The notes: generated by a model from the letters alone, not told the origin. A stretch of 64,000 nucleotides of DNA from an uncultured Gammaproteobacteria bacterium (GCA_964536205.1 CAZHVT010000001.1:5944-69943), one strand, 5' to 3'. Shown: positions 11,267-46,786, numbered from the stretch's first letter. Program-made: numbers and translations.

Positions 11267-12412
11267 CTATAACTCGTTTTGTGGCCAAACGTGGCCAGCG
11301 CGGTTCACCTTGATGAGCCATGGTGCGCCTGTGTTGTATTTCCGGAACTCTTCCAGATCATCTGGTTTGTAGTCCCATGTTTTGTCTTTTTCTTGCGAGT
11401 AGAATTTTACCTCGTACTCCCCTTTGTGTGTATTGCGGAGATCGCTCCTGCCGTTTGTTGGAAAATCTGGCCAATGTTCCTCGTGTGTTGTCCCGCCAAC
11501 CACATTTGTTTTGATAACATCCCATTCGTGATAGTCGAATGAACACCACTCATCGTAAACAGGACATTGATCGTAGCACGTGTCGTACTCGGTTCGGTAA
11601 CAGGTGTCGTAGCAGGTCGAACATGTTGTTGTGCAGGATGCATAGCCATTTCCACTAGGTGAGCATGACTCGCGACAATTACAATCATGAGGTCTACAAT
11701 CGTAGCTCACTTGATGAGGATTACAATCGTGCGGATTACATCGTTCGTACTCCTTGAACTTGGTCACACACTTTACATTATGTGCGTCACTTGGCATGTT
11801 TCCATCCCAATCATTGCCATGCTTGAGAAATCGCTGTTCAAGATTTACGGTATGCTCCCAATGAATTCCTGTGACCTCGGCGTTCACTTCATATGGCATG
11901 AAAATCCACAAAAGTAATCCGACTACTAATGCAATGCCGCCGATAATGCTCGCGATTTTTATCATTCGCGTTTTACGCTGTCGCGCAAACTCGAAATCAA
12001 CTTCATAGCGATCAAAAGATGATGTGAAATCATCATTTCTGCGAATCGGCGTTCCTGGTTTCATATCCTGCTCGGGATGATACCGCTTAGTTTCCCGTGC
12101 CTCTGGATGGAAACTATCCATATCTTTTTTTCCGGCGCAGTTACGGCAACTGCCATTGAGATTTCTCTCCTGCGATCCGCAGTACTCGCACACCCAGTTT
12201 GCTCCAGCATTCGCTTCACGCAAACGCTCGGCGTCGGTGACGGATGCAACTTTTGTCGAGTCACCAGGCATGATGTCTTTTTCATCAGCCTCTTTTGGCG
12301 ACCCACAACTCTGACACTGCGTGTGGCGTCCTTTATTCACATGATGACAGCTCGAGCATTCCCATGTCAGCTCGATAATGCGATGCCCTCTGCGTTTCAT
12401 GAATCCCTCCAT
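11267..12412 (-). CDS. Cys-rich single-pass membrane protein with two N-terminal zinc ribbons and a C-terminal Cys-rich ectodomain
   Basis: CSSCHHV...CQSCGS and CEYCGS...CRNCAG, TM helix MIKIASIIGGIALVVGLLLWIF, then about 24 Cys in 200 aa. Confidence 0.5.
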   Translation of the reverse strand: MEGFMKRRGHRIIELTWECSSCHHVNKGRHTQCQSCGSPKEADEKDIMPGDSTKVASVTDAERLREANAGANWVCEYCGSQERNLNGSCRNCAGKKDMDSFHPEARETKRYHPEQDMKPGTPIRRNDDFTSSFDRYEVDFEFARQRKTRMIKIASIIGGIALVVGLLLWIFMPYEVNAEVTGIHWEHTVNLEQRFLKHGNDWDGNMPSDAHNVKCVTKFKEYERCNPHDCNPHQVSYDCRPHDCNCRESCSPSGNGYASCTTTCSTCYDTCYRTEYDTCYDQCPVYDEWCSFDYHEWDVIKTNVVGGTTHEEHWPDFPTNGRSDLRNTHKGEYEVKFYSQEKDKTWDYKPDDLEEFRKYNTGAPWLIKVNRAGHVWPQNEL

Positions 12413-12661
12413 TGCTAAAAGTTTTGCAGAAATACAATTTGAAAGAACATAGTACTATAACATGATATTTCACTTTTGTCAATGTTTATACGCAAAAATT
12501 GATATCTATTGACCTATTGCTGGGTCTATGGTATTATCTTCCGACACAAAAGACTCGCAGCATAGGTGGGCTTCCCACACGTCGGTATGTCAGGTCTAAG
12601 TGTTTATATATAAGAGGTGCTGCTTAATCCTCGGATTATCTGCATCTCGCGAACCGAATCT

Positions 12662-12859
12662 ATGACCGGTACCATTGCAAGAAAAATGGACAAGGGTTAC
12701 GGATTCATCAAATCAGATGAGATGGAAAAAGATCTCTTCTTCCACGCCAAGGAATTGGTTGGAGTAATGTTTGATGAATTGAACGAGGGCGACGCAGTAA
12801 CTTTCGAAGTTGCTGAAGGACCTAAGGGCGCAAACGCTGTGAACGTACAGCGCGCGTAG
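12662..12859 (+). CDS. cspA: cold-shock protein (CspA family)
   Basis: MTGTIARKMDKGYGFIKSDE...DLFFHAKEL aligns with the cold-shock domain RNP motifs (KGFGFI, VFVHF-like); long leader upstream. Confidence 0.8.
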   Translation: MTGTIARKMDKGYGFIKSDEMEKDLFFHAKELVGVMFDELNEGDAVTFEVAEGPKGANAVNVQRA

Positions 12860-12948: not shown

Positions 12949-13332
12949 CTAGTTGGCGTTTTCTTGCCCTGTTTCGCCCTGGGGAATGAGAAGGCTACGC
13001 AACTTGGCTTGCATGCGATACATCATGGCGAGTGCAGCCCAGAATTTGTGATCCTCCGCGTGATCGTCACTTATGTCTTTCAACCATGACTCAACCTTCA
13101 ACTCAAGATAGCTCGTCATGTAGGTAACCTTCGCTTTGTCAGCTACTGACAGACTCCCCACCAATGCAGGATCTCCGAATATATCTCCAGTCTGTCTCAG
13201 GGGATAAATAATGTCTCCCACAGTACCTAACACTTCAGAATCTCCAGAATCGAGAATTTCACGAGTCAATGCATCAACTTCTGTTTCCGTTCTTTTGAGA
13301 AGTACGACGAGTAGTGCGTTTGGTTCATCCAT
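12949..13332 (-). CDS. hypothetical protein
   Basis: 127-aa ORF. Confidence 0.4.
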   Translation of the reverse strand: MDEPNALLVVLLKRTETEVDALTREILDSGDSEVLGTVGDIIYPLRQTGDIFGDPALVGSLSVADKAKVTYMTSYLELKVESWLKDISDDHAEDHKFWAALAMMYRMQAKLRSLLIPQGETGQENAN

Positions 13333-13450
13333 TATGTCCTCCGTTTGAATGAGCGTACACTATTACATCATACCCGTTCGGATTAATCAATTATTGACAC
13401 TTTAACCATCTTTTGATACATTCTTCTCATCGCTCATAAAAGGAGGCATC

Positions 13451-13744
13451 GTGCACTTTGCCACGTTTCAACAAACAATCGCTGTAAACTTCGAAGATCC
13501 GCACAATTTTCGTGATCTGACTGACATGACCGGATTCAACTTTCCTTTGTTTTCGGCCGAACTTTCTCATCGACAATTTGGTCGATTTGAGATTCGCGTT
13601 GCAGAGGCTTCTCGTCGATATTGGAATGCATGGATTGAGCGCGCAGTGCTCGGAACACGCAATCTCCGTATTAACGGCGCACGATCTATCGATATTGCAC
13701 TTACTTCGTTCATTCCGATTGTTCAATCGCATTTGATTGATTGA
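13451..13744 (+). CDS. hypothetical protein
   Basis: GTG start 5 nt after AGGAGG; followed by a strong terminator. Confidence 0.45.
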   Translation: MHFATFQQTIAVNFEDPHNFRDLTDMTGFNFPLFSAELSHRQFGRFEIRVAEASRRYWNAWIERAVLGTRNLRINGARSIDIALTSFIPIVQSHLID

Positions 13745-13751
13745 AATTCAT

Positions 13752-13780
13752 CCGCATGTCTACAGACATGCGGTTTTTTT
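13752..13780 (+). terminator. Rho-independent terminator ccgcatgtcTACAgacatgcgg + T7
   Basis: 9-bp perfect stem plus T-run. Confidence 0.7.
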
Positions 13781-13822
13781 GATGTGAATATGTTTTTTGC
13801 TAAAATTGGTCACCAACTTATC

Positions 13823-13905
13823 TTATTTCCACATCACCTTGTCTTTATCCACATCTATGCACACCTTTGTGGATAACATGTGGAAGTTATGCACATATCC
13901 ACAGA
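13823..13905. promoter_or_regulatory. Cluster of DnaA-box motifs (perfect TTATCCACA at 13845-13853, GTTATCCACA on the opposite strand at 13868-13877, TATCCACA at 13897-13904, plus weaker TTTCCACA/TGTGGAAG)
   Basis: Matches to the DnaA box consensus TTATCCACA read directly. Confidence 0.5.
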
Positions 13906-14759
13906 TTGTGTGCATAACCATGTGTATTGTTTGTGATTACACACAGTTTTAAATTCAATGTCCAACTTCTCTGCAACTAATTTAAGTAAAAAAGCTACGT
14001 TGACAAAACCGGTTTTTCATGTTATACTGTTTATGTAACTGAGATGACCGTTTGCACACCACTTACGCATCCGCGTTACCCATCATGTACAGTTAGCACC
14101 ACCACTACCAACTGTATATACCACTACAACCACTTAGTTCATTCATGGGCCTGTCGCACCTGCGATAGACCTACAATCAAATCTTCCTCGTTCACTCGTT
14201 GGGAGAATTGGGTTTAACCTCTTTCTCCATCACTCTGCTCTGCTTTATGCTTACGTATATACCAAACAGGACACTGTGTGGCATACTCATAAGCTTGGGA
14301 ACCTCTTTTAGATGGATCTCCCGTGGCTTGGGTAGGATGATGAGGTAAGTCACTCGGAAAATCCAGGAGAGTTATGTTGCAGATGCGTATAGCATGAGAT
14401 GTCTCATGTCGTACTATACGCGTCTGCAGGTACTCGTCGATTATCCGAAGGGGGTACTGCAGGCTTTAAGCAACACTGTAAGGCTGTCGCAGACCCCTCT
14501 TTTTTTTGCTTAAAACCAGAAATCTCCGATTTCGTAAGTTTTAAGTATTCCCGAGGCCTACCACAATTTTGAAAATATTACGCGTATCGCATACCACTTA
14601 GTCAGAAGAATGCACAGATGAACCTAGCCGTGTGGAACAAAGCAAGAGGCGAGCTGAGGATTTTTACCAAGACTAATACGCCTCCATCGTATTCCCTTCG
14701 AAATTTCTGATTGCCTTAATTTTCTTGGACGCATCCGAAGCCTATCAAGCAGATTTTTA

Positions 14760-14783
14760 ACACCACATAATGTGGTTTTTTTA
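14760..14783 (+). terminator. Rho-independent terminator ccacatAAtgtgg + T7
   Basis: Hairpin plus T-run ending an ORF-free transcript region. Confidence 0.55.
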
Positions 14784-15054
14784 TTTCTCTAAAAAATGCG
14801 GATGTGCCTGGCTTCTGGTGCGATAGATACTGAATTCCGTATTTACCATTACACCCACCTAACAAGAGCATTCACCATCCAAGAAATACAGCATCATCAG
14901 CACCAAGATCTAAGAGAGCAAATCTTCACCCACAACAATTTATTATATATTTTGTCACAAAAACCCCAACAAAAAAGTAAATTATTATCCCCAAACCAAC
15001 TTGACATAGCCCCTATTTCGGAGGATAATGATTTCATAATTTTGATATAGAAAT

Positions 15055-15435
15055 ATGGCTGGACACACAAAAACATTTGTTAAAAAAATGAATGAGCAAC
15101 TTCTTGAGGAAGAAACTCGATTGAAGTTTGAATTGGGTCAAATTGCTGATCCTCAAGCTGAAGGTGGAAGTGAATATGAAACTCGTTTCCCGCAATATGG
15201 AGATTCTGAAGAAGATAATGCCGCAGAAGTTGAGGATTTTAGTCATAACATTGCGATGAAGGGTACATTAACCAAAGAACTAGCGGATGTTCAGAAAACC
15301 CTCAAAAGGCTCGATTCTGGCGATTATGGTATTTGCAAGTATTGTGAGCAACCCATAGAGGAAAAGCGCTTAGAGGCGCGTCCTACGTCTAATTCTTGTG
15401 TTGCGTGCAAGAAGGCCTTAAAACAAGAGATTTAA
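15055..15435 (+). CDS. DksA/TraR-family C4 zinc-finger transcription factor
   Basis: C-terminal CKYCEQPIEEKRLEARPTSNSCVACK four-Cys finger; acidic coiled-coil N-terminus. Confidence 0.7.
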   Translation: MAGHTKTFVKKMNEQLLEEETRLKFELGQIADPQAEGGSEYETRFPQYGDSEEDNAAEVEDFSHNIAMKGTLTKELADVQKTLKRLDSGDYGICKYCEQPIEEKRLEARPTSNSCVACKKALKQEI

Positions 15436-31763: not shown

Positions 31764-31836
31764 TGTCCCCAAGAGGAGTCGAACCTCTATCTCCACCTTA
31801 GGAGGGTGGCATTCTATCCGGTTGAATTATGGGGAC
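31764..31836 (-). tRNA. tRNA-Arg (anticodon CCT)
   Basis: Reverse complement GTCCCCATAATTCAACCGGATAGAATGCCACCCTCCTAAGGTGGAGATAGAGGTTCGACTCCTCTTGGGGACA; anticodon loop CTCCTAA. Confidence 0.85.
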
Positions 31837-31920
31837 TTATTTGTTGAATTTGAGTTTACTCTGCTTTTTCCTCGTTTTGTGAGCTCAATGTTCTTTTTTT
31901 CTCATTCCTGTACATGATTT

Positions 31921-31951
31921 GTGGATATTCTGTGGATAGCGTGGATAAGTG
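31921..31951. promoter_or_regulatory. Three tandem DnaA-box-like motifs TGTGGATAT, TGTGGATAG, GTGGATAAG
   Basis: Direct reading; in the AT-rich region between tRNA-Arg and rmuC. Confidence 0.45.
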
Positions 31952-39959: not shown

Positions 39960-40285
39960 TGCTTTATTTGTGGGGGTATACTAACATTGTGGATTTTGTT
40001 TGGCAAGAGGTTGGGATGCACCGCGACATTTTGAGTATGTGTGGATAAGGGTTGACAGAATCCACAGGTCACGATAGGCTTAAATTCTAGCTATTGTTAG
40101 TGAATTAATATATTTTTAAAAATATATTCACACTTATTTTTTACATTTATCCACACTATCCACAAGTTTTCCACATGGTACACACATATCGTAAACAGTT
40201 GACCCTTTTCAAAGAATATTTTGTGATGTATCATCAGAAGACTTGTACTTTTATCGGGTGTGATACCCCATGACCTCCCACTATT
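39960..40285. promoter_or_regulatory. oriC DnaA-box region upstream of dnaA (TGTGGATTT 39989-39997, TGTGGATAAG 40041-40050, ATCCACA 40071-40077, TTATCCACA 40147-40155, TATCCACA 40157-40164, TTTCCACA 40167-40176) with an AT-rich tract at 40100-40140
   Basis: DnaA-box consensus matches plus the canonical rpmH | dnaA-dnaN synteny and the strand switch at this point. Confidence 0.65.
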
Positions 40286-41683
40286 ATGATGACGAATGAA
40301 TCAATCTGGCAAGCAGTGCTTGCAGAATTGGAGCTAGAGCTCTCTAAAGCGAACTTTACGACGTGGTTTCGTAATACTTCATTATCTTTAATGGAGAATA
40401 ATGAGGTTTCAGTGTATGTCCCTAATAACTTCACCAAATCATGGTTGGAGAAAAAGTATCACACATCTATATTGAAAACCCTTGAACAGGTTCTTGGAGC
40501 TCGTATTCAAAAGGTTGCGTATTGCGTTGAGAAAAATCCACAAAAATCCCAAGCTTCTTTTATCACACAAGGTTTCACCTTCAATCACGATTCTGCAGAC
40601 AATTCACTTACTGTTGGCCCACAGGCTCCTGTGGTACAGCAAAATCCAAATGCGCGCGGCTTACACCCGCGTTATGTTTTTGAAAATTTTATTGTGAGTA
40701 AAAGTAATGAGTTGGCACATGCCGCGGCGCAGGCTGTGGTATCCAACCCCGGTGCTTCTTATAACCCCCTCTTTATATACGGCGGAGTTGGGCTTGGAAA
40801 AACTCATTTAATGCAAGCGATCGGACACTCTGTTTTGCAACAAAATCAAGAGGCGAAAGTTTTGTATGTTTCTTGCGAGACATTTACGAATGATTTCATT
40901 CACGCAGTTCGCAATGGTTTGGCAAAAGAATTTAAAGATCGTTATCGCAATGTTGATGTATTGATTGTTGATGATATTCAATTTATTACTGGAAAAGAGG
41001 GGACGCAGGAAGAGTTTTTTCACACGTTTAATGCGCTTCACCAACAGGATAAGCAGATTATTATTTCATCAGATCGTCCACCAAAAGCAATTCCGGCATT
41101 GGAGCAGCGATTACTTTCTCGTTTTGAATGGGGGATGATTGCTGATATTTCATTTCCAGATGTTGAAACACGTGTGGCTATTTTGGAAGCGCGTTGCTCA
41201 GAGCGTGGTATTAAAGTTCCATCAGATGTATTGCACACTATTGCAAATCACATCCAAAATAATATTCGTGAATTAGAAGGAGCTTTGAATAAAATTATTG
41301 CGACGATTGAAATGCACAAGAGTGAGCCTACGTCTGAAATGGTACAGCAAGTTTTAGGAAGTATTAAAGCATCACGCACCATTCACTCTGTATCACCTAA
41401 GGAATTGATTAGAGTGGTTTCTGAATACTTTGATGTAGGTATTGATGATATGGTTGGAAAAAGCCGTGAGAAACGTATTGCATTCCCACGACAGATTATT
41501 ATGTATTTGTTGCGTAAGGAGATGAAAAACTCATATCCTTCGATTGGAGCGGAGTTGGGTGGACGAGATCATACAACTGCGATTCATGCGTATGAGAAGA
41601 TTCGTAAGGCTGTTGAGGTTGATAATAAACTCAAAGCCGACATACAGTATATTAAAGAACGATTGTATACGCCTGCGGCGTAG
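40286..41683 (+). CDS. dnaA: chromosomal replication initiator DnaA
   Basis: AAA+ Walker A GGVGLGKTHL, sensor motifs, C-terminal DNA-binding helix-turn-helix; 465 aa. Confidence 0.95.
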   Translation: MMTNESIWQAVLAELELELSKANFTTWFRNTSLSLMENNEVSVYVPNNFTKSWLEKKYHTSILKTLEQVLGARIQKVAYCVEKNPQKSQASFITQGFTFNHDSADNSLTVGPQAPVVQQNPNARGLHPRYVFENFIVSKSNELAHAAAQAVVSNPGASYNPLFIYGGVGLGKTHLMQAIGHSVLQQNQEAKVLYVSCETFTNDFIHAVRNGLAKEFKDRYRNVDVLIVDDIQFITGKEGTQEEFFHTFNALHQQDKQIIISSDRPPKAIPALEQRLLSRFEWGMIADISFPDVETRVAILEARCSERGIKVPSDVLHTIANHIQNNIRELEGALNKIIATIEMHKSEPTSEMVQQVLGSIKASRTIHSVSPKELIRVVSEYFDVGIDDMVGKSREKRIAFPRQIIMYLLRKEMKNSYPSIGAELGGRDHTTAIHAYEKIRKAVEVDNKLKADIQYIKERLYTPAA

Positions 41684-42064: not shown

Positions 42065-43189
42065 ATGAAGTTCTCATGCACAAAGGAGAATTTACTCAAA
42101 GCATTAACCTGTACAGGATATGTATCAGGTAAACAGGTGAACTTACCGATATTGCAAAATGTGTTGATATCGATGAAGAATACCGAAACTAAGATTGTGT
42201 CGACTAATTTGGAGATTGCTGTTTCAGCGCAGTTGCGAGCAAAAGTTGAGACTGATGGAGAATTTACAGTTCCAGCTCGAGTATTTTTGGAGTATATGGC
42301 GAATGTTCCAGGTGATCGTGTTGATATTGAATTGCATGAATCTGGATTGGGTGTTCAGATGGGGCATTCAAAAACTGTTTTGAAGGGGATGGAAGCTACG
42401 GAATTTCCGTTGATTCCAGGAATTGAGGGGGATGTAGTATTTGAGTTAGATGCGAAAGTTTTATTGAATGCATTGCATCAGGTTTTGTTTGCTGCATCTA
42501 AGAGTGATGTGCGTCCTGAATTATCTGGAGTTTTATTTCATTGTAATCCACCCGAAGGAAAACAAAGTTTGGTGTTGGCGGCGACAGATAGTTTTCGATT
42601 AGCTGAAAAGAAAATTACGTTTAAGAGTGGGGGAACAGAGGAAAAGCGAGTGATTGTTCCATCTCGTACAGTTTCCGAATTGGTTCGCATTATAAATGTT
42701 TCGACGAAAGAAATTGATAGTGTAACGATGCGTGTTTCTGATCATCAGATTGTGTTTGTGTGTGGTGGTGTGCAAATTACTTCGCGATTGACTGATGGGA
42801 ATTATCCGAACTATGAACATATTATCCCCAAGGAATCGAATGTTGAGATGAGTGCGTTGAAGGATGATGTGGTGAAGCAGGTGAAGGGTGCGAGTTTATT
42901 TACGACAAAGGGAATTGGTGCGGTGCGGATGAAATTTGTGGCAGCAGAAAATAAAATTAATATTACATCGACGAATGCGCAGACGGGTGAGCACGCGGGG
43001 AGTGTTGTTGCTGAAGGGAAGGGTGATGAGGTTGAGATGTATTTGAATCATCGATATATTTTGGATGGGTTGAGTGTGATTGATAATGAGCGAGTGAAAT
43101 TTTCCGCGCAATCTACTGATGCGCCGTTGGTGATGCGTCCGCAGATGGATAAGGACTATCTTTACATGATAATGCCTATTAAGCAGTAA
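42065..43189 (+). CDS. dnaN: DNA polymerase III beta sliding clamp
   Basis: 374 aa, three-domain clamp; synteny with dnaA. Confidence 0.9.
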   Translation: MKFSCTKENLLKALTCTGYVSGKQVNLPILQNVLISMKNTETKIVSTNLEIAVSAQLRAKVETDGEFTVPARVFLEYMANVPGDRVDIELHESGLGVQMGHSKTVLKGMEATEFPLIPGIEGDVVFELDAKVLLNALHQVLFAASKSDVRPELSGVLFHCNPPEGKQSLVLAATDSFRLAEKKITFKSGGTEEKRVIVPSRTVSELVRIINVSTKEIDSVTMRVSDHQIVFVCGGVQITSRLTDGNYPNYEHIIPKESNVEMSALKDDVVKQVKGASLFTTKGIGAVRMKFVAAENKINITSTNAQTGEHAGSVVAEGKGDEVEMYLNHRYILDGLSVIDNERVKFSAQSTDAPLVMRPQMDKDYLYMIMPIKQ

Positions 43190-46641: not shown

Positions 46642-46760
46642 TTCAATTTGTATTATTCGTGGGTGTAGTGTGGATAAGCTGTGTTTATAGTGGATAAGTA
46701 TCATTAATTTGGATTATATATGAGTATGGTATATAGTTCAAGCGTTCTTTACTTATTTAC

Positions 46761-46786
46761 TGGATTCCCACATTCGTGGGAATGAC
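46761..46786 (-). repeat. R1 hairpin repeat copy d (reverse orientation; GGGAATGACA faces the downstream gene start)
   Basis: GGATTCCCACATTCGTGGGAATGACA immediately 5' of the RBS AAAGGAGAG. Confidence 0.65.

Follow-up and report, generated by a model that had tools for sequence, protein, structure and literature searches.

The large structured non-coding RNAs (ncRNAs) of bacteria that are known to us have proved to be ribozymes, essential ribonucleoproteins (RNPs) or unusual RNA assemblies, and to our knowledge those longer than ~400 nucleotides (nt) with complex conserved folds are rare. The OLE, ROOL, GOLLD and raiA motif RNAs were first recognised by comparative genomics, without an obvious catalytic or regulatory assignment. 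In Bacillus subtilis, DnaA-box clusters are found outside oriC, upstream of sda and ywlC. Bacteria of the candidate phyla radiation (CPR)/Patescibacteria are uncultured, have very small genomes and possess few known regulators. Here we describe a ~470-nt ncRNA gene from such a bacterium, an uncultured Parcubacteria-like member of the CPR. The gene lies at positions 14035–14507 (+ strand) of a 64,000-nt stretch of DNA deposited under the label of an uncultured Gammaproteobacteria bacterium (GCA_964536205.1, CAZHVT010000001.1:5944–69943), which is referred to in its entirety as the window. It is almost certainly a real, conserved gene for a structured ncRNA that is new to Rfam; on balance, we lean towards reading its product as a new trans-acting RNA, probably controlled by DnaA and most likely serving as a protein-binding scaffold.

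Related loci (labelled L0xx) were taken from genomes and assemblies with the DksA protein as the anchor, and the RNA unit was then located by blastn and nhmmer. It was present in seven further distinct lineages, namely L011, L012 (=L040), L013, L042, L044, L046 and L047 (=L048), whose DksA proteins are 94% (L011), 86% (L012/L040 and L044) and 60–52% (L042, L013, L047/L048 and L046) identical to that of the window. These homologs occur in marine Parcubacteria-like contigs, nearly always with a dksA/ylyA-like gene and then lspA just downstream, and in seven of the eight dksA lies directly downstream on the same strand. The sources of the contigs are JGI 3300009375, 3300009106 and 3300009376, ENA SUTE22-1 and SCRA20-1, and Tara; the genome bins include those with NZCD01000066 and CAZHXK010000001. 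The RNA gene, its upstream region and the spacer that follows it comprise:

13845–13853 (+), 13868–13876 (−), 13887–13895 (+), 13895–13903 (+) and 13909–13917 (−): DnaA-box array, upstream of the RNA promoter
13957–13964, + strand: conserved AATGTCCA element, ~40 nt upstream of the −35, in six of eight homologs
14000–14028, + strand: sigma-70-type promoter (TTGACA, 17-nt spacer, TATACT), with an extended −10 TG at 14020–14021
14035–14507, + strand: ncRNA of ~470 nt, conserved in eight lineages
14049–14067, + strand: hairpin P1, with a conserved 7-nt loop YACNYCA and compensatory changes in three of four pairs
14087–14117, + strand: hairpin P2, with a conserved CA-rich loop CCACCACUAC
14118–14147, + strand: single-stranded linker with a second CCACUAC and a conserved U-rich UAGUUC(A/U)UUCAU; invariant columns, no helix predicted
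14147–14171, + strand: extra, lineage-specific hairpin, in the window and L011 only
14202–14228, + strand: hairpin P3, GGAGAAUUGGGUUUAACCUCUUUCUCC, almost invariant
14229–14341, + strand: central domain, in which the long-range helix P4 (14229–14244 with 14325–14341) encloses P5 and P6
14250–14293, + strand: P5, with an apical GGACAC loop
14296–14323, + strand: P6
14354–14448, + strand: P7, a long irregular hairpin; compensatory change in 14 pairs
14450–14507, + strand: P8, terminator hairpin and U8 tract, with a conserved inner module AGGCUuuAAgCAACAyUGU and compensatory changes in the outer stem
14511–14964: strain-specific spacer, not RNA, including a hairpin and T-run at 14762–14783; absent from L011 and L012

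The sigma-70-type promoter matches the consensus at 11 of 12 positions. Its −35 hexamer TTGACAAAA is invariant and the TGnTATACT block around the −10 nearly so in all eight homologs; the U8 tract of the terminator is likewise invariant, and promoter and terminator are both kept throughout. From the promoter geometry the 5′ end of the RNA would fall at ~14035, with the 3′ end placed by the U8 tract, and the product is predicted to be a discrete, abundant and stable transcript. A preliminary description, made from this DNA alone, had proposed candidate structured ncRNA(s) in a region without open reading frames (ORFs) that ended in two T-run terminators. The first of these terminators is the one at 14450–14507, a 50-nt G+C hairpin followed by T8 and conserved in the homologs, which a simple terminator scanner overlooked because of its large inner loop. 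The absence of ORFs is also borne out, with none of at least 60 codons on either strand between 13745 and 14795 and the largest reaching 57.

The fold is strongly supported by comparison of the eight sequences. RNAalifold predicted 112 pairs, 45 of them with compensatory double changes. After curation the structure comprised 109 pairs; 93.2% of cells were paired, against 38–47% when the partners were slid by 1–3 columns, and 45 pairs covaried, against 4–16 in the slid controls; covariation among homologous regions, the check that had been suggested for this locus, is therefore far above controls. None of 500 column shuffles attained the observed paired fraction, number of covarying pairs or covariation score. 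Furthermore, 14036–14510 folds better than shuffled sequences on the + strand (z = −5.4) and, less so, on the − strand (z = −3.5). The sense strand is fixed as + by the promoter, the terminator and the many conserved G–U pairs, each of which would read as an A–C mismatch on the opposite strand. With its own conserved promoter, an intrinsic terminator and covariation beyond the controls, the locus has the features of an independent bacterial ncRNA gene.

The consensus opens at the 5′ end with hairpins that have CA-rich loops; a closed three-way central domain, the long hairpin P7 and the terminator hairpin P8 follow. In the central domain, the helices include 22 pairs with compensatory change. 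No pseudoknot or long-range pairing of the CA-rich loops beyond the known helices was found. The 60-nt near-perfect hairpin placed at 14388–14447 in the preliminary description does exist, but it is imperfect and spans 49 nt at 14379–14427, where it forms the distal part of P7 (14 bp with one U–G wobble among them, then ~6 bp beyond a 3′-side bulge of 5 nt). The stretch resembling P4 of RNase P RNA, cggaaaatccagg (14355–14367), had been thought to have no complementary partner; it pairs with 14430–14448 as the base of P7, and its sequence is variable.

Most of the internal sequence of the RNA can be aligned across the homologs, and differences in length are confined to hairpin loops and tips, the pattern expected of a folded RNA. 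Thus the tip of P7 is extended by 24–27 nt in L012 and L044, and in L011 the small hairpin equivalent to window 14147–14171 has ~150 nt inserted in its loop. This A/T-rich insertion (L011 3370–3520) may be either a small mobile insertion or an expansion segment. Compared as DNA with L011 and L012, respectively, the window is 98% and 84% identical in the central domain and 97% and 90% in the 3′ domain, as against 82% and 78% in dksA, 79% and 60% in lspA and 83% and 70% in the methyltransferase gene. By this measure the central and 3′ domains of the RNA evolve more slowly than the neighbouring genes; the 5′ domain is the least conserved part of the RNA.

Two covariance models were built, R1 from the central domain and R2 from the 3′ domain. 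R1 finds its domain only in the homologs, and high scores of both models were confined to the eight lineages. R2 also matched L030 (24.8 bits) and L052 (27.4 bits), in each case immediately upstream of dksA on the same strand; collinear weak R1 matches and a shared P8 inner motif accompany these hits, and L030 and L052 are probable distant members of the family. A pattern scan of metagenomes recovered two loci, both of the L012 lineage, and no copy of the RNA was found in viral collections (two pattern scans of viral contigs and a phage BLAST).

The preliminary description had extended the candidate ncRNA(s) to ~14790, and this second half proved empty; the first half proved better founded than its reader had thought. 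The second terminator motif is present, as a small hairpin with a T-run at 14762–14783. As a second RNA, the segment 14511–14790 was rejected, since it folds no better than shuffled sequences (z = 0.05) and has no homolog outside the same strain; for the whole spacer, 14511–14964, no homolog was found beyond the same strain either. Gene finders report an 84-codon ORF at 14796–15050, of which relatives match only the last 26–29 codons, overlapping conserved dksA promoter DNA, and it is probably spurious.

The RNA could not be assigned to a described family, in agreement with the first reading by eye, which had failed to match it to RNase P RNA, transfer-messenger RNA (tmRNA) or signal recognition particle (SRP) RNA. 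Rfam 15 at the gathering threshold gave no match in the whole window other than tRNAs, of which ARAGORN and Rfam find three. At E ≤ 10, the RNA region and its counterparts in L044, L046 and L047 gave scattered, chance-level matches to unrelated families, none of them recurring, and the covariance models of RNase P RNA gave no match in any of these four. The alignment consensus contains neither CR-I GAGGAAAGUCC nor the CR-V ACAGAA..GGCUUA strand of the P4 pair, and the consensus fold supports no 5′/3′ terminal helix of the RNase P P1 type. No tmRNA was detected by ARAGORN (in the window) or by Rfam, and there is no tRNA-like domain or conserved tag reading frame; SRP RNA gave no Rfam match (helix 8/domain IV models). 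OLE, GOLLD, ROOL, HEARO/omega RNA, raiA and IMES were likewise without an Rfam match at E ≤ 10, and the locus has no transposase, IscB or phage context. Literature searches on CPR/Patescibacteria ncRNAs, 6S RNA, RNase P RNA and the 224-motif paper turned up neither a description of this RNA nor any RNA class described for CPR/Patescibacteria.

Upstream of the promoter, the DnaA-box cluster with which the ORF-free region was said to begin is real (13845–13917, two perfect and three one-mismatch boxes); it lies outside the RNA, as an upstream promoter element instead of a part of the transcript. Three of the boxes, at 13887–13917, form a trio with the arrangement TTATnCACATATCCACAG-N5-6-TGTGnATAA, that is, two overlapping direct boxes and one inverted box. 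In each of the eight lineages the trio is found 70–85 nt upstream of the −35, and it is essentially invariant while its surroundings drift. The conserved AATGTCCA element is followed by an A/T-rich stretch resembling an UP element. Such a pattern looks more like a regulatory site bound by DnaA than like an origin. Whether the RNA promoter depends on DnaA we regard as an even question. The boxes could instead serve DnaA titration independently of that promoter, a point that counts against the overall interpretation given above.

DnaA-type boxes were also seen at other places in the window. Three in tandem (TTATCCACG, CTATCCACA and ATATCCACA) occur at 31920–31948 (− strand), ~85–110 nt upstream of the tRNA-Arg gene at 31764–31836, and in this organism DnaA boxes may act more generally as upstream elements for the promoters of some stable RNAs. 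Two more (TGTGGATAA and GTGGATAAG) are present at 46669–46697, upstream of a gene for a 388-residue protein that starts at 46776. In all lineages examined, a DnaA-box-like TTATCCCCA is positioned a few bases upstream of the dksA −35 (window 14985–15029; L011 3931–3975; L042 4957–5005; L047 1420–1466), from which dksA may also be under DnaA control.

That the RNA acts in trans rather than in cis appears likely. As to how it acts, a protein scaffold or sponge is our tentative suggestion. In this mechanism, the RNA would be a folded protein-binding scaffold, an RNP acting in trans, in which the 5′ domain would present single-stranded CA-rich (CCACUAC) and U-rich (GUUCUUUC) elements as binding platforms and the central and 3′ domains, which are nearly invariant, would build a specific tertiary fold, while occupancy of the trio by DnaA would tie synthesis of the RNA to the state of replication or growth. 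Sequences of this sort, YCAY-like clusters and GUUCUUU-like motifs, are similar to what KH domains and cold-shock domains prefer to bind. Several points besides DnaA titration weigh against this interpretation. The proposed scaffold or sponge role is drawn from the appearance of motifs and from synteny with a cold-shock-domain (CSD) gene and dksA; transcript ends and abundance are deduced from the DNA; and the family so far comprises a narrow clade and two weak distant matches. Complementary targets are not enriched and no pseudoknot is seen in the 64 kb of genome examined. There is also a small probability that the RNA is a very aberrant housekeeping RNA, the searches for canonical RNase P RNA, tmRNA and 6S RNA having covered the 64-kb window.

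Alternatively, the RNA could be a trans-acting base-pairing regulator, in which the CA-rich (CCACUAC) and U-rich (UAGUUCUUUCAU) elements would be seeds that pair with mRNAs, for example at AUGAAAGAA-type start regions, and the structured 3′ part would give stability. The single-stranded motifs are indeed conserved, one of them being repeated, the RNA is an independent transcription unit, and a terminator hairpin with a U-tail is typical of bacterial small RNAs (sRNAs). However, 470 nt with ~310 nt of highly conserved complex fold is far beyond the needs of a seed-bearing sRNA, and it is the seed-bearing 5′ domain that is least conserved. Complementary sites (GTAGTGGT, TATGAAAGAACTA and the longest k-mers) are at chance level in the window, where by our own estimate the longest complementary 12-mers are about as numerous as expected by chance. 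We consider a regulator of this kind rather unlikely.

A further explanation, to which we give a low probability, is an RNA polymerase-binding regulator like 6S RNA or mycobacterial Ms1, kept beside the gene for DksA, a factor of the RNA polymerase secondary channel. The fold argues against it, being multi-branched and not a rod with a large central bubble, and no Rfam 6S match was obtained at E ≤ 10. The size of the RNA and its strong promoter do resemble those of stable regulatory RNAs, and synteny with a dksA/TraR-family gene holds in all homologs; nevertheless, because the ylyA–lspA pair follows ileS in B. subtilis, the adjacency of the RNA to this pair may be historical and not functional.

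Two explanations seem quite improbable. One is a housekeeping RNA, whether RNase P RNA, tmRNA or SRP RNA, that has diverged or been rearranged so far that current models overlook it. Its size class would fit RNase P RNA or tmRNA, its conservation is very strong for a reduced genome and its expression signals are like those of stable RNA genes, but the covariance-model searches at E ≤ 10 in four homologs, and ARAGORN for tmRNA, were all negative. In addition to the absent CR-I and CR-V strands, the P4-like stretch is unconserved and pairs locally, neither a terminal helix nor a tRNA-like domain is present, and the family is narrow and fast-evolving outside its own clade. The other is a cis-acting leader or attenuator of a dksA–lspA–methyltransferase operon. 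Against such a leader, dksA has its own conserved −35/−10 promoter past the terminator in every lineage examined, and the spacing between RNA and dksA ranges from 79 nt to ~2 kb (450 nt in the window, a 148-codon ORF in between in L042, ~2 kb in L013), even though the RNA is directly upstream of dksA on the same strand in most homologs and ends in a terminator, as an attenuator would. No alternative antiterminator pairing was found, and Rfam cis-regulatory families gave no match above noise in the RNA region.

Equally, we see little probability in an origin-related element, either a secondary origin or a locus that titrates DnaA and, through its transcription, modulates initiation. The invariance of the box trio would suit it, as would the similar box pairs upstream of the sister-clade units described below. 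Nevertheless, dnaA–dnaN, at 40.0–43.2 kb, has its own DnaA-box cluster directly upstream (40040–40175), where GC skew turns positive, whereas cumulative GC skew is still falling well past 13.8 kb; the region 40040–40175 is the probable oriC of this genome. With dnaA and the skew switch elsewhere, and no conserved A/T-rich DNA unwinding element between the boxes and the promoter, the boxes at 13.85 kb are not the chromosomal origin; such an element would, besides, leave the conserved RNA fold unexplained.

Least credible is a small-protein mRNA read from a conserved AUG (14044) with a long structured 3′ untranslated region: an invariant GAGAUG or GAUGAUG close to the 5′ end opens a 57-codon ORF in the window (14044–14217), but the reading is contradicted by an unconserved frame, with ORFs of 57, 76, 10, 52, 16, 48, 36 and 1 codons in the eight lineages (L042 reads AUG UGA), no Shine–Dalgarno sequence and no Pfam match for the 57- or the 84-codon ORF, and this variation, from 1 to 76 codons, shows that the RNA region is not coding. 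No other rival is favoured by the data over the trans-acting, protein-binding RNA.

Equivalent units are found at the same locus in sister clades. L014/L019/L027/L053, L021/L049, L017 and L051 each have a strong promoter, a non-coding unit of 310–400 nt and a long terminator. In the first of these groups the structured unit is ~345 nt (L014 3517–3861, L027 3478–3816, L019 3227–3579, L053 ~1790–2130), and in the fold of L014, L027 and L019, 20 of the 95 predicted pairs have compensatory changes, from three sequences only. Rfam on eleven sister-clade loci returned one tRNA and nothing else. Upstream of the units are two DnaA boxes ~32 nt apart, flanked by copies of a ~20-bp palindrome, TTGTATACAcTAGtGTATACAA (TTGTCTAGACTAGTCTAGACAA in L052), which is probably an operator for some regulator:

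L014 3345–3520, L053 1620–1760, L021 3320–3500, L052 15–150, L051 4300–4560: sister-clade regions with DnaA boxes and palindromes

R1 and R2 searches of L014, L017, L049 and L053–55 gave scores at the level of the terminator only, which leaves homology to the window RNA unsupported, and the units may be fast-evolving versions of one gene, or RNAs that are analogous to it. A broader view, which we offer as speculation, is that large structured RNAs with DnaA-box promoters, joined in the sister clades by the 20-bp palindromic operator, form a superfamily that evolves fast, extends across the Parcubacteria and occupies one locus upstream of dksA–lspA, with the window RNA as its best-conserved member; the RNA would then be a hitherto unrecognised housekeeping RNP or ribozyme coupling replication status, through DnaA, to gene expression in bacteria of minimal genome.

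The gene order around the RNA is CSD gene, DnaA boxes, RNA, dksA and lspA, the CSD gene being the ancestral upstream neighbour of the locus. Annotated genes of the window include (the first three lines from Pfam on the flanking ORFs):

12617–12859: gene for a cold-shock-domain protein
15055–15435: gene for a DksA/TraR-family zinc-finger protein (dksA/ylyA-like)
downstream of dksA: signal peptidase II gene (lspA), then a gene for an RNA/DNA methyltransferase
40286–41683: dnaA, 26 kb from the RNA locus
42065–43189: dnaN

Between the CSD gene and the RNA, at 12949–13744, are two small ORFs, p127 (− strand) and p97 (+ strand), the latter with its own promoter at 13394 and a terminator at 13752–13773; neither has a Pfam match, and both are missing from the equivalent position in L011. 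On the − strand, 11267–12412 encodes a 381-residue protein that combines several zinc-ribbon CxxC motifs with a transmembrane segment and a very Cys-rich C-terminal half, and which is 56–60% conserved in L011 and L012 and has only a weak Pfam match to a RanBP-type zinc finger. The host genome, with a G+C content of ~42%, is of the CPR/Patescibacteria type; the closest genome records to the window are labelled Parcubacteria, Magasanikbacteria and similar, and the window strain has been assembled repeatedly from marine metagenomes. Many records labelled 'uncultured Gammaproteobacteria' (binchicken co-assemblies; L012, L013, L015, L017 and others) bear clearly Parcubacteria-like dksA–lspA loci, and their organism labels look unreliable.

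That an RNA evolves more slowly than its neighbouring genes and stands behind invariant DnaA boxes points to an important role, perhaps one connected with the cell cycle. With the alignment, the structure and the two covariance models, the family can be searched for directly in metagenome-assembled genomes and metatranscriptomes, and a defined construct is available for structural work.

In comparison with known systems, the window RNA resembles 6S RNA and Ms1 RNA in having a stand-alone gene of the stable-RNA type, driven by a strong promoter, and it is tied to the transcription machinery only through synteny with dksA. It differs from 6S RNA (~180–200 nt) in being 2–2.5 times longer and multi-branched, where 6S RNA is a rod with a central bubble, and in having no match to RF00013. 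With bacterial RNase P RNA it shares a similar size range, a multi-domain fold and strong purifying selection; unlike RNase P RNA, it has no P4 pseudoknot strands, CR-I, CR-V or terminal P1 and no covariance-model score. The closest likeness in kind is to the OLE, ROOL, GOLLD and raiA motif RNAs, which also have large intricate folds with much covariation and highly conserved loops and junctions, each in one bacterial lineage. The window RNA matches none of their Rfam models, however, and it occurs in CPR/Parcubacteria in a different neighbourhood, associated with neither phages nor tRNAs; we know of no counterpart to its upstream DnaA-box array among RNAs of the OLE, ROOL, GOLLD and raiA type. 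It represents a new class of large, structured ncRNAs in bacteria, comes from an uncultured lineage and is unusual in its association with DnaA boxes. That array resembles DnaA-regulated promoters outside oriC, in which consensus DnaA boxes are intergenic, tens of kb from oriC and immediately upstream of a promoter; here, in contrast, the gene downstream is a large structured ncRNA, and the two overlapping direct boxes and one inverted box are invariant across the family.

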